DNA from: a virus
Taxonomy: Duplodnaviria > Caudoviricetes
Virus record (IMG/VR): IMGVR_UViG_3300035208_002098
Location: 1 to 64,000 of that record
Length of the DNA: 64,000 nt
Reading direction: 5' to 3' (one strand)
Shown here: positions 1,975-53,530 of the stretch, piece by piece
Layout: every line of letters starts with the position of its first letter
Position numbering within the stretch: position 1 is the stretch's first letter
Notes under the pieces: generated by a model
The model's input: the letters and a program-made list of their open reading frames with translations, nothing else
Databases searched by the model: none
Told to the model about the DNA's origin: nothing
Translations under genes and position numbers: made by a program

Positions 1975-2001
1975 ATACCTTAATTTGAACCTATTTACAA
2001 C
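1975..2001 (-). repeat. Solitary CRISPR-repeat variant (27 nt)
   Basis: ATACCTTAATTTGAACCTATTTACAAC versus array repeat ATACCTTATTTTGAAACCCATTTACAAC. Confidence 0.8.
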
Positions 2002-25278: not shown

Positions 25279-26697
25279 TTATAATTTTTCTATTATACCT
25301 TTTCTATTAGTTATTTCTTTACATACTTTTGCTGGTATAAGATTTTTGCCTATATAGATATATGTACCTTGGTTAGCTGTGCCACCACTAATAAGAATTT
25401 GGTTTTTATTAACACTTAAATGTTTACCAGACCAATTTTCAGTTATTTTAATTTTAGCACCTTTCGAGAAATTATAACGAGTTTTTCTAATACTATTATT
25501 ACCTTTGGTAACTTGTTTTCTGGTTCCATCTGGATTTAATATTGGTGTTCTATATTGTCTCAAATTTTCACCATTAGTCGATTTATTTCGTTTTGTTCTA
25601 CCAGAATTTAATACATATCCGGTTTTTATTTCACCATCTCTTGAATCAATATATTTAGCATCTCTAAATGTTTGTAATGCTCTATTGTTTCTACGTTCAC
25701 ACTTAAGATTAATAGTTTCAGATATTTTATCTTTGTCAGTACCACCAGCTATAATAAAAGCATCGTTATGGTGAGATTTCTCAATTTTATTATGAATTCT
25801 ATTAGCTTTAGTAATATAACCGTGTGTATTAGTAATTTCTATATTGGGATATAATTCTCGTAATTGATTAAGAATTCTAGTTTTAATAATATTCATAAAT
25901 GTAGAATCTTTAAAACCTTTAACTTTAAAACCGTTTTTTTGCCAATCTACTAAGAATCCTTTTTCATGGTTTTTAGCTGTATGACATTTTTCACAAAGTG
26001 TTATTAAATTACTTGGTTTATCTGAACCACCATTACGTCTATATATAATATGATGTACGTTTAATACCGGTTTATAGTTTTTATCGTCTTTATGTTTACA
26101 ATCTGGATTTTGACATTTATGGTCATCTCTATGGAGAATATATTCTCTAATATTCCAATATCCTAATTGTTCACCTTGTTGATATTCAACACTAGTAATT
26201 AATGGGTTATTAATTTTCTGAATATCAAAATTAGCCGTTTCTAATATAATTTTAGTTATTGGCAATCTAGTAATTAGTTTATCAATCTGTTTGATATGAG
26301 TATCAAATTTGTGTTGAGTTGATGGTGGTAACCAATTATCTTTTCTAGTTCTAAAATCGAATCGCTTTGCACGATATCTAAGTCTACTCCTTCGTAAGCT
26401 ACGACATCGTTGTTTATCAGATATCAATGATTTGATATCATTACGAAGTTCCAATTCACAACCAAACAATTCTTCTTTAATTGTTAAAGCTGAAATTCCA
26501 ATGAATGAATAACCGGTATCAATACCAAGTGTAATTGGTTGTATGAATTCTGGTGTATCATATAGTAATTTAATAGTAAATGGTTCATGCGAAAAAATTT
26601 CAGCTTTACCATCTTTAATTAATCGCCTAACTTTACCGTATTTTTCGGTTGGCATAAGCGGTTCTCCGTTTTTGTTAAGTACGAATACTTTTTTCAT
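25279..26697 (-). CDS. iscB: IscB RNA-guided endonuclease (PLMP, split RuvC, HNH), CRISPR-associated
   Basis: PLMP motif; RuvC-I GIDTG; Arg-rich bridge helix RSLRRSRLRYRAKRF; RuvC-II LETANFD; HNH VHHI...N..TLCEKCH; RuvC-III SHHNDA; 472 aa. Confidence 0.95.
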   Translation of the reverse strand: MKKVFVLNKNGEPLMPTEKYGKVRRLIKDGKAEIFSHEPFTIKLLYDTPEFIQPITLGIDTGYSFIGISALTIKEELFGCELELRNDIKSLISDKQRCRSLRRSRLRYRAKRFDFRTRKDNWLPPSTQHKFDTHIKQIDKLITRLPITKIILETANFDIQKINNPLITSVEYQQGEQLGYWNIREYILHRDDHKCQNPDCKHKDDKNYKPVLNVHHIIYRRNGGSDKPSNLITLCEKCHTAKNHEKGFLVDWQKNGFKVKGFKDSTFMNIIKTRILNQLRELYPNIEITNTHGYITKANRIHNKIEKSHHNDAFIIAGGTDKDKISETINLKCERRNNRALQTFRDAKYIDSRDGEIKTGYVLNSGRTKRNKSTNGENLRQYRTPILNPDGTRKQVTKGNNSIRKTRYNFSKGAKIKITENWSGKHLSVNKNQILISGGTANQGTYIYIGKNLIPAKVCKEITNRKGIIEKL

Positions 26698-26719
26698 TTT
26701 GTTTTTAATTTAAATTAAT

Positions 26720-26945
26720 AAATAAATCAGGGTCGAAACCCTGTGGTCCACTTTGACAATGTTATAAAAGCTTGTAATTTACCTTCCACTTCTCCGTATA
26801 GGGTTAGAGATGTTTAGTCGGGTAACACATTGCTACAGGCTAGTGGAGCACCGTAGGTGTGATGACTTAAATAACGTAGGTTTCCCTGAGTCATAATTGT
26901 AATCATCGAGAACTTCATTCTCAATTTTAAAAATAAGGTATGTTT
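26720..26945 (-). ncRNA. omegaRNA scaffold with a 5' anti-repeat (tracr-like)
   Basis: - strand contains CTACGTT, ACCTACGG...CTGTAG, TAAAC, ATAACATTG and a terminal CAGGGTTTCGACCCTG hairpin resembling IscB omegaRNAs. Its 5' part ATACCTTATTTT...TTACAAT is complementary to the repeat. Confidence 0.85.
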
Positions 26946-26956
26946 TTAATATTTTT

Positions 26957-27519
26957 ATTCTAATGTTTTATATTTTTAATCCTATTTACAACGGAAAGAC
27001 CTGAGGCGAAAAAATTATGTGTGTTGTTTAATACCTTATTTTGAAACCCATTTACAACACTAACATGTCACAGTAAACAACTTCAACTGTTATTTAATAC
27101 CTTATTTTGAAACCCATTTACAACAAAGACAATAGATTATCAGCAGATTCATTTGTTGTTTAATACCTTATTTTGAAACCCATTTACAACACTAGTTTCT
27201 ATATTATAGAATATTATTCTGTTGTTTAATACCTTATTTTGAAACCCATTTACAACATCATAATGATATACAAAATATTATTGAAGGTTGTTTAATACCT
27301 TATTTTGAAACCCATTTACAACTCCATTGTTGTTTAGTTTAATTTTTTTATTGTTGTTTAATACCTTATTTGAATCCTATTTACAACTGGGATAGAACTT
27401 AATTTTTAAATTAAAACTTGTTTAATACCTTATTTTTGAAACCTATTTACAACTGATAAAGAATATGATAAGGAACTTATTAAATTGTTTAATACCTTAT
27501 TTTGAAACCCATTTACAAC
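26957..27519 (-). CRISPR. CRISPR array: 8 repeats plus 1 degenerate terminal repeat, 8 spacers of 29-30 nt
   Basis: + strand repeat GTTGTTTAATACCTTATTTTGAAACCCATTTACAAC at 27023, 27089, 27155, 27221, 27287, 27353, 27417 and 27484; degenerate copy ends at 26992; 66-nt period. Confidence 0.97.
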
Positions 27520-27571
27520 TCATTCGAGCATCTGAAGAACAACTACTTGTAAATTATTATATAAAACATTA

Positions 27572-27582
27572 TGTCAATGAAC
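27572..27582 (-). promoter_or_regulatory. boxA-like antitermination element in the CRISPR leader
   Basis: GTTCATTGACA on - strand, about 15 nt downstream of the -7 box; identical copies at 32561 and 52901. Confidence 0.65.
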
Positions 27583-27597
27583 TTTTTTATTATACTG

Positions 27598-27629
27598 CAA
27601 AGATAAAGAAAAATAAAATACGATGCAAG
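27598..27629 (-). promoter_or_regulatory. Promoter driving array, omegaRNA and iscB
   Basis: TTG(-33)...TATCTTTG(-7) on - strand. Confidence 0.8.
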
Positions 27630-32047: not shown

Positions 32048-32084
32048 GGTGTAAAAATACCTTAATTTGAAACCTATTTACAAC
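32048..32084 (-). repeat. Solitary CRISPR-repeat variant inside a stem-bounded ncRNA module
   Basis: ggtgtaaaaATACCTTAATTTGAAACCTATTTACAAC, flanked by complementary aagagctgt and acagcactctt. Confidence 0.85.
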
Positions 32085-51675: not shown

Positions 51676-51803
51676 TAGGATGAATAGGATTCGAACCTAT
51701 AATGTGTTGCCCGTAAGACGCTTGGTTGCGGAGCAGTGCTATTTCACAACGCTTACTCTATTACTCTCTCAGGACTCGTGTATACCAATTCCACCACCAC
51801 CCT
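51676..51803 (-). ncRNA. Oversized tRNA-like RNA E (~128 nt)
   Basis: AGGGTGGTGGTGGAATTGGTATACAC ... ATAGGTTCGAATCCTATTCATCCTA. Confidence 0.65.
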
Positions 51804-52026
51804 ATTTTGCTTTACATTGAGATTACATATAAAGTCTAGTTATTATCGGTTTTCTTTCTTTCAATAAACCTGCCACACTTCTGTTGTTTAAAAAAGTCAA
51901 ACTACTTGGAGCCTCTGTTACCTAGCTTTTATTCCCAACGAAACTGGCGTTTAAGGATGTCCAGTTCAATACCCTACCCATTGTTATAAGTCTTGGGTTA
52001 AAGACCACTTGTACCTCTTACAATTG

Positions 52027-52097
52027 TGCTGCGAATAGGACTCGAACCTACATCCTGAAGTATTTCCCTCCCTGTTCTACCATTAAACTACCGCATC
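52027..52097 (-). tRNA. Normal-length tRNA-like gene with non-canonical anticodon loop (pseudo-tRNA)
   Basis: GATGCGG-TA-GTTTAATGGTAGAAC...GTAGGTTCGAGTCCTAT-TCGCAGC-A; loop GGAAATA lacks U33. Confidence 0.55.
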
Positions 52098-52252
52098 ATT
52101 GTTGACTCGACTTTAGCCCAGTCTTTTATATAAGCATATAGGTTATATATCTTATATGGCTACCTAGAATTATGTCTAGCTCACATCTAGGGGACTCAAC
52201 CTTTACACTTGAATCAGAGGTGGTTGGTACTATTCATTATGTGTTAGAGACA

Positions 52253-52294
52253 GTTGTTTTAAAAATATATCTTAATTTGAAATCTATTTACAAC
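52253..52294 (-). repeat. Solitary 42-nt CRISPR-repeat variant
   Basis: GTTGTTTTAAAAATATATCTTAATTTGAAATCTATTTACAAC on + strand. Confidence 0.8.
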
Positions 52295-52508
52295 CCATTC
52301 CACCACATCACCATTTAATCTTTAAAAATACTACATCTGGTTAAGTGTTCGCCTCCACTGTTCACCAATTATTGAGTGCCTTACTGTAAAAGTAGGTGAC
52401 CCATTTTACACCCCCGATATCGGTAAACGACCTCCTAATCAGGTTAATATAGTATAAAGTTTTAAAAAGAATCATTATGTTTAGGTTTTTGTTACTATTA
52501 ATTAGAGT

Positions 52509-52550
52509 GTTGTTTTCAAAATATACCTTAATTTCAAACCTATTTACAAC
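52509..52550 (-). repeat. Solitary 42-nt CRISPR-repeat variant
   Basis: GTTGTTTTCAAAATATACCTTAATTTCAAACCTATTTACAAC on + strand. Confidence 0.85.
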
Positions 52551-52900
52551 GATACTCCCCTTTCGGCATGTAACTCGCTCAACCATGCATAAGATTCTCT
52601 ATATTTTAAAAACCATTAGTCTTGTGATGAATAAACTTCAATGTGCGGTGGGTAGCAAACTCGGCTTCTTTTCAGATAACTTATACTGTTTATATTGTCA
52701 CTAACATGAATCACAACTTCATATATAATAAGTAGTTCTTGCATACTATTTGGTTGGTATGTAGGCTGAAAGCCAGCTTTAGCAACGCTCTTATTATTGT
52801 TAGCTCCAATCTAATGGTTAATATTTAAAAGGGGTTACTCAATGGAACACTATATATTTGTCATAGCTCTTATCACTGTATTAACTTCACCCCAATTTTA

Positions 52901-52911
52901 TGTCAATGAAC
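52901..52911 (-). promoter_or_regulatory. boxA-like element within ncRNA cluster 2
   Basis: GTTCATTGACA on - strand. Confidence 0.6.
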
Positions 52912-52917
52912 TAATTG

Positions 52918-53050
52918 TGCCCGTAGGAGGACTCGAACCTCCATGGTTTTGTTTTATATCATCACGTTAATGACTTTATTATAAACCGTATCCCACGTTC
53001 AAGGCTTGCAATCCCATCCTGTGTAGCTTTACCAATTTGCTTATACGGGC
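52918..53050 (-). ncRNA. Oversized tRNA-like RNA G (~133 nt)
   Basis: Perfect acceptor GCCCGTA/TACGGGC; D-arm AGC-AAATTGGTAAA-GCT; T-arm GGAGG-TTCGAGT-CCTCC. Confidence 0.7.
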
Positions 53051-53492: not shown

Positions 53493-53530
53493 TTTTCAAA
53501 ATATACCTTAATTTGAAATCTCTTTACAAC
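53493..53530 (-). repeat. Solitary CRISPR-repeat variant just downstream of a promoter
   Basis: TTTTCAAAATATACCTTAATTTGAAATCTCTTTACAAC; -7 box at 53553-53560. Confidence 0.8.

Follow-up and report, generated by a model that had tools for sequence, protein, structure and literature searches.

A phage-borne CRISPR-associated IscB with an omegaRNA probably split at the loop of its first guide-adaptor hairpin

The first 64 kb of a linear IMG/VR virus record of 248,412 bp (27.7% G+C, ~70% complete), from a large uncultured phage and analysed here as a whole and referred to as the window (64,000 nucleotides), contain a phage-borne CRISPR-associated IscB. Its omegaRNA is probably divided within the first guide-adaptor hairpin, at the loop, and would work like a crRNA plus a tracrRNA. 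This reading draws directly on the complementarity between the CRISPR repeats and the start of the omegaRNA, the compensatory conservation of that complementarity among related loci, a topology held in common with unsplit omegaRNAs, and the intact domains of the IscB protein.

All elements of the locus lie on the minus strand, in the order leader promoter box, CRISPR array, HEARO/omegaRNA, terminal stem-loop and iscB, and every motif quoted in an earlier sequence-only reading of this DNA was found on that strand where it had been placed. The array (26957..27519) consists of 9 repeats of 36 nt (R1 to R9) and 8 spacers of 29-30 nt with a period of 66; five of the repeats are identical, and all 8 spacers are unique and of near-constant length. 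A motif search located a TATCTTTG box at 27598..27605, in an ACTTG-N20-TATCTTTGCA configuration of Bacteroidota type, which by the Bacteroidota -33/-7 consensus is a putative leader promoter, and at which the array transcript likely starts. On the 3' side of this box, a boxA-like motif (AAGTTCATTGAC in the window, 27560-27597; ACGTTCTTTGAA in the related loci L003 and L169) may act as an antitermination signal for the array transcript. At its other end the array closes with spacer 8 (26993..27022), the sole spacer adjacent in cis to the omegaRNA, and with the degenerate terminal repeat R9 (26957..26992), which has kept GTTGTAA and lost the upper-stem segment; an AT-rich linker (26942..26956) separates R9 from the anti-repeat. 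The omegaRNA opens with an upper-stem anti-repeat (26926..26941), made up of ATACCTTATTTT (26941-26930) and 3 more pairs past a 1x1 mismatch, and continues with a hairpin designated SL2/hp2 (26905..26925; core GAGAA-TGAAG-TTCTC at 26922-26908, extendable to 9 bp over 26925-26905), the lower-stem anti-repeat TTACAAT (26896..26902), whose partner is repeat bases 1-7, and the HEARO scaffold (26741..26895; Rfam RF02033). It ends in a terminator-like terminal stem-loop with a T-run (26718..26743), the stem of which is kept in 8/8 loci. The cognate omegaRNA, which harbors an anti-repeat complementary to the direct repeat, is located directly upstream of iscB (25279..26697; 472 aa) on the same strand, the CRISPR array is co-oriented with and adjacent to both, and a further gene adjoins iscB directly on its downstream side.

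Judged from its sequence, the protein has the make-up of an IscB, namely an N-terminal PLMP/RRXRR region, a split RuvC, an inserted HNH and a length within ~400-500 aa. Pfam matches were obtained for RRXRR (6.6e-56; residues 4-175) and HNH (2.7e-10; residues 195-245), the best relatives of solved structure are IscB chains (11hr_A, E 1.7e-47; OgeuIscB, 1.6e-46), and the residues conserved in the clade include D60, H215/H216 and D312. The last ~60 residues (414-472; window 25279-25458) did not align with the ordinary relative P0091, and array-bearing members of the clade have proteins with 20-40 aa more; the divergent C-terminal end may represent a different target-adjacent-motif domain. No Y1 transposase (tnpA) that would indicate residence in an IS200/IS605 element was found in the 248-kb record (~70% complete), nor was any gene for Cas1, Cas2 or RNase III found in this phage record, so that a host enzyme would be needed for RNase III processing.

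Checking the RNA against the omegaRNA covariance model, as the sequence-only reading had proposed, gave a single HEARO match in the whole 248-kb record (RF02033; 26941-26741; 57.3 bits; E 3.6e-10), which falls below the gathering score of 83, mainly because the 5' strand of stem P1 is missing. The anti-repeat lies exactly at the 5' edge of this match. Alignment of the omegaRNAs of 8 loci yielded 52 consensus pairs, 28 of which show compensatory changes, a pattern from which we infer that the scaffold is under structural selection; the anti-repeat region is unpaired in this consensus.

The pairing itself is extensive. Bases 17-28 of the consensus repeat GTTGTAAATGGGTTTCAAAATAAGGTATTAAACAAC, that is AAAATAAGGTAT, are the exact complement (12/12) of the omegaRNA start ATACCTTATTTT, and the 5' GTTGTAA of the repeat pairs with TTACAAT through 6 Watson-Crick pairs and 1 G-U pair, so that both pairings described in the sequence-only reading hold. 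The repeat:anti-repeat energy was -14.7 kcal/mol, compared with -5.6 +/- 2.5 kcal/mol for 500 shuffled repeats, of which only 1/500 reached the observed value, placing the complementarity beyond chance. Co-folding of repeat and omegaRNA recovered the predicted duplex, with a 7-bp lower stem, 5 unpaired repeat bases, an upper stem of 12-15 bp and the hairpin retained on the omegaRNA strand; this lower stem, unpaired segment and upper stem geometry is borne out by the co-folds and by compensatory change across relatives. Being AU-rich, the 7-bp lower stem is weak alone, and thermodynamics by itself gives no confident prediction of it; a junction held by the protein would explain this weakness. 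The upper stem, also AU-rich, is short for RNase III at 12-15 bp.

The anti-repeat fits the internal repeats better than its own neighbour. The repeat alignment confirmed that the terminal repeat, which begins GTTGTAAATAGGATTAAAAATATAAAACATT..., has no AAGGTAT, and the window anti-repeat pairs with the internal repeat at -13.1 kcal/mol vs -6.7 kcal/mol with R9, in keeping with the preference that had been noticed from the letters. When the complete 881-nt precursor was folded with a partition function, the upper anti-repeat paired with the internal repeats at a summed probability of ~0.97 and with R9 at 0.00.

We compared the locus with other IscB loci. A viral search with the single protein returned nothing, and relatives were found by alignment-based scans. 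The closest ones share 50-74% identity and are carried on short metagenome contigs, many of which end a few hundred bases upstream of iscB, as is usual for assemblies at repeats. The contexts of two further proteins, P0112 and P0006, were uninformative, with no DNA for one and only 47 nt upstream for the other. Seven related loci displayed at least part of the repeat and of the omegaRNA start, which gives, with the window, the 8 loci compared. All 7 have the same arrangement with divergent repeat and anti-repeat sequences, each cognate pair being still complementary. When the repeats were set against the omegaRNA 5' regions in an 8x8 matrix, the cognate combination was the best in 8/8 rows (mean of -17.4 vs -3.9 kcal/mol for non-cognate combinations). 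The closest relative, L171 (74% identity), has the repeat AAATTAAGG vs AAAATAAGG in the window, and each of the two anti-repeats fits its own repeat; compensatory variants of the lower stem occur in L006 and L007. Wherever internal and terminal repeats could both be assessed (4/4 loci, window included), the internal repeat pairs about twice as well as the terminal one, with energies of -10.8 and -3.7 kcal/mol in L171, -21.9 and -7.5 kcal/mol in L005, and -25.1 and -11.5 kcal/mol in L007. Strong internal and weak adjacent pairing in these four loci indicates that selection keeps the pairing with internal repeats while the adjacent repeat decays.

Such covariation bears on the idea that the complementarity is a relic of the ancestral hairpin, or that its role lies in folding or attenuation of the precursor, with no loading of guides. 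An array born by duplication of one hairpin strand is expected to be complementary at the outset, and the searches made for spacer targets were negative: the array had no match in the phage collection, spacers 6, 7 and 8, each queried by its 3' 24 nt, had none in IMG/VR, and the spacers showed no significant match to the phage's own genome. A relic, however, should decay as R9 has decayed, whereas repeat and anti-repeat have fully diverged between loci and yet remain matched, and the spacers are unique and constant in length; we therefore consider this explanation improbable. Another search concerned the repeat itself. Its 28-nt core, with 5 free positions, occurred in 0/185,579 species genomes and in 0 IMG/VR contigs, and no host array or close phage was found. 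This result, together with the fact that the phage has its own matching array, speaks against the notion that the phage omegaRNA pairs with the crRNAs of a host CRISPR system in order to disarm or borrow them; although a phage-Cas9 tracrRNA matching host repeats has been described (PMC10910872), we regard hijacking of this kind as very improbable here.

As to the hairpin within the anti-repeat region, the 5' part of the HEARO consensus consists of stem P1 enclosing two hairpins, and three non-CRISPR relatives (L130, L118 and L146) likewise fold as P1 enclosing two hairpins. The hairpin is predicted in every co-fold and is retained in all 8 loci, with a different sequence in each. Given the topology shared by the consensus and these relatives, the lower stem of the window is P1, and the upper stem is the first hairpin with its loop opened. 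The guide-adaptor region has been equated with the repeat:anti-repeat duplex by Hirano 2022 (PMC9581776) and Kato 2022 (PMC9640706). The sequence-only reading had described a 5' end rebuilt as an anti-repeat with an inserted hairpin; by comparison with the HEARO consensus, the non-CRISPR relatives and published work (PMC9581776), this element is instead the second of the two hairpins in the ancestral guide-adaptor three-way junction, neither inserted nor part of a rebuilt end. The crRNA:tracrRNA-like interpretation offered in that reading is thus upheld as regards the duplex and the preference for internal repeats, and the insertion of a hairpin is dropped from it.

In a quick midpoint-rooted tree, array-bearing IscBs and ordinary relatives are split by a branch of 99% support, the rooting carrying no claim on the direction of change. 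A pair of identical 30-nt repeats separated by a 35-nt spacer is visible in L088 (2150-2300) and L128 (2150-2300), two loci within the ordinary-IscB clade, and this looks like an independent, incipient array; as L088/L128 fall among the ordinary IscBs, arrays seem to have arisen more than once. Both L088/L128 and L003 bear a mini-array whose intact last repeat stands in cis, with a loop of 13-24 nt to the anti-repeat, and by their sequence these mini-arrays are best described as an ordinary omegaRNA with a duplicated 5' half. Among the other relatives, L007 (50% identity) has, besides its upstream repeats, two well-kept repeats and one spacer just downstream of iscB (2890-2990).

In five relatives (L005, L006, L007, L168 and L172), the end of a TAnnTTTG box lies 1-6 nt ahead of the first base at which the anti-repeat pairs, against a background of ~0.001 per nt. 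By the consensus, this box is the Bacteroidota -7 element. Its location directly 5' of the anti-repeat implies that the omegaRNAs of these five relatives should have their 5' end at the anti-repeat and be made apart from the array transcript. No such box was found before the anti-repeat in the window, L171 or L003, and a sigma-70 scan of the locus performed no better than on shuffled sequences. For the window, the array and the omegaRNA would probably form a single precursor, in which the initial pairing may be intramolecular and long-range; long-range pairing in a single array-omegaRNA precursor and pairing between molecules are equally likely here. A further candidate promoter, TTTTTAAAA, which occurs in the anti-repeat region and upstream of three solitary repeat units (see below), was rejected as it displayed neither enrichment nor strand bias.

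Use of the adjacent repeat alone, with spacer 8, R9, the linker and the scaffold forming the working omegaRNA and the upstream repeats being unloaded tandem duplicates of its 5' end, would accord with the lack of a promoter box between array and anti-repeat in the window, with the clearly cis organisation of L088/L128 and L003, and with DelIscB, which functions as one cis RNA (PMC12660989); R9 moreover retains GTTGTAA, and 9 AU pairs between R9 and the anti-repeat region are still possible. It does not account, however, for the following: (i) the upper-stem complement, gone from R9, is complete in five internal repeats of identical sequence, (ii) the anti-repeat tracks the internal and not the terminal repeats in four loci, (iii) the promoter box between array and anti-repeat in five relatives would exclude a cis transcript there, and (iv) solitary repeat units elsewhere in the window have kept the pairing segment alone. 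We thus judge exclusive cis use unlikely. Guide use of non-adjacent repeats by IscB is indirectly supported by the promoter boxes, the solitary units and the downstream repeats of L007.

Under the preferred reading, that of a split omegaRNA, the 5' strands of the guide-adaptor region would be provided by the first 28 nt of each repeat (GTTGTAA, then five bases left unpaired, then the strand of the upper stem), while their 3' counterparts would have stayed at the omegaRNA start as the upper anti-repeat, the second hairpin and TTACAAT. Transcription from the leader promoter near 27600 would probably yield the array and the omegaRNA in a single precursor, and any well-formed repeat pairing with the anti-repeat would rebuild the three-way junction. 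The spacer 5' of the paired repeat would then take the ordinary guide position of an omegaRNA, with which IscB would find DNA; internal spacers as well as the guides of solitary units would be loaded in this manner, and host nucleases, possibly RNase III, would trim the product.

Aside from the array, the window contains five solitary repeat units, four of them recovered by BLAST and the fifth confirmed by a direct check. They are located at 32057..32084 (SRU1), 52523..52550 (SRU2), 52267..52294 (SRU3), 1975..2001 (SRU4, followed by a terminator hairpin) and 53503..53530 (SRU5), all on the array's strand (minus), and they correspond to the first 28 nt of the repeat. Their similarity to the repeat runs from GTTGTAAAT to AAGGTAT, which is exactly the pairing segment and nothing beyond. 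All five harbor the variant AAATTAAGGTAT, the form present in the L171 array, and have one consistent mismatch to the anti-repeat; SRU3 pairs poorly (-3.5 kcal/mol). A TATCTTTG box (53560-53553) lies 22 nt upstream of SRU5 and represents a putative promoter of the same type as that of the array leader, so placed that the guide would be ~16-17 nt, in agreement with the 16-nt guide reported for DelIscB (PMC12660989). From these features the solitary units look like single-guide crRNA genes served by one omegaRNA. More tentatively, and with somewhat less than even confidence, it may be envisaged that a single tracrRNA-like omegaRNA serves both the eight-spacer array and dispersed single-guide crRNA genes, at least SRU5 having its own promoter for a ~16 nt guide. 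This would constitute a natural dual-RNA IscB network, in which the split of the omegaRNA into crRNA and tracrRNA is complete although the protein has not grown; the phage could use such a network against rivals or for regulation.

The 15/16 self-matches of the SRU5 and SRU4 guides were rejected as targets, being within chance or ascribable to local duplication. The 15 nt before SRU4 (ATTAATTTGACGATT) recur 62 nt upstream (2078-2064, minus strand; region 2002-2078), with a terminator hairpin between the two ATTAATTTGACGATT copies and another after SRU4; the recurrence may reflect local duplication or provide a built-in target. Two of the solitary units are situated in an ORF-poor stretch of ~1.9 kb (window 51676-53050, minus strand), which also contains Rfam tRNA matches at 52097-52027, 53050-52918 and 51803-51676, two of them with insertions of 59-69 nt in the anticodon region; ARAGORN found no tRNA in the window. 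The 16 nt preceding SRU3 (52294) resemble the 5' part of a tRNA.

CRISPR-associated IscBs were first reported in 2021 (Altae-Tran et al., Science 374:57, as summarised in PMC11610941). In the DelIscB system, the RNA comprises spacers, repeats and an anti-repeat, and the duplex can be shortened into a single guide (PMC12660989). The experiments on DelIscB used a single cis RNA, and its authors state that it has yet to be investigated whether processing yields separate crRNA-like and tracrRNA-like parts (PMC12660989). A repeat/anti-repeat duplex in a CRISPR-associated IscB has thus already been published, and what is added here is the comparative series, the promoters of the relatives and the solitary units. 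As far as these sources describe them (Altae-Tran 2021, in summary; DelIscB, PMC12660989), the systems share with ours a small IscB without a REC lobe, a scaffold upstream of the gene, an array joined to that scaffold, a direct-repeat/anti-repeat duplex replacing the guide-adaptor hairpin, and the absence of adjacent cas1/cas2. Compared by description, the present locus differs in its 248-kb phage record, its 8 spacers, its decayed terminal repeat and its dispersed solitary units, and in having relatives with a promoter box directly before the anti-repeat.

The Type II crRNA:tracrRNA arrangement is similar in that the spacer is followed by the repeat, the repeat is antiparallel to the anti-repeat at the scaffold's 5' end, and the guide abuts the duplex. 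In contrast to Type II Cas9, the protein here is of 472 aa with PLMP/RRXRR and no REC lobe, the record yielded no gene for Cas1, Cas2 or RNase III, the scaffold is a ~200-nt HEARO omegaRNA, and the duplex forms a three-way junction with a retained hairpin. With the transposon IscB-omegaRNA systems (OMEGA; RF02033; OgeuIscB 7xht/8csz), the locus has in common the protein family and a scaffold with a conserved pseudoknot region and a terminal hairpin; unlike them, it has no tnpA in the record and a next gene directly after iscB, and its omegaRNA lacks the 5' strands of both P1 and the first hairpin, which would be supplied by the repeats. An analogous functional RNA splitting has been described for the TnpB-derived TranC (Jin et al. 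2025, as cited in bioRxiv 10.64898/2026.03.27.714800). According to that account, in TranC, too, a transposon guide RNA has come apart into a crRNA and a tracrRNA-like part while the protein has not grown; its nuclease is a TnpB and its RNA gene lies at the element's right end, whereas an IscB is involved here.

The locus reveals no new kind of system. The transition from omegaRNA to the crRNA and tracrRNA of Cas9 is still discussed, and the phage clade offers a graded series for it, from (i) an unsplit omegaRNA, through (ii) a cis-joined mini-array, to (iii) full arrays with a decayed terminal repeat, some of them with a promoter at the anti-repeat. This series places the split in the loop of the first guide-adaptor hairpin, with the second hairpin kept, and a split point known in such a series makes the question of the crRNA/tracrRNA split directly testable in a system that is both small and compact. 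For IscB editors with dual guides or multiplexing, the series also points to a design rule.

Two distantly related proteins with downstream arrays, those of L050 and L139 (520-555 aa; 33-36% identity), were set aside as too distant to bear on the finding, and no omegaRNA-like sequence was seen on reading the DNA upstream of either. Their arrays, composed of 36-nt GTTGTGTATT... repeats, are located downstream of the gene (L050, 4180-4650; L139, 2330-3030), and one of the two loci sits on a 675-kb viral contig.
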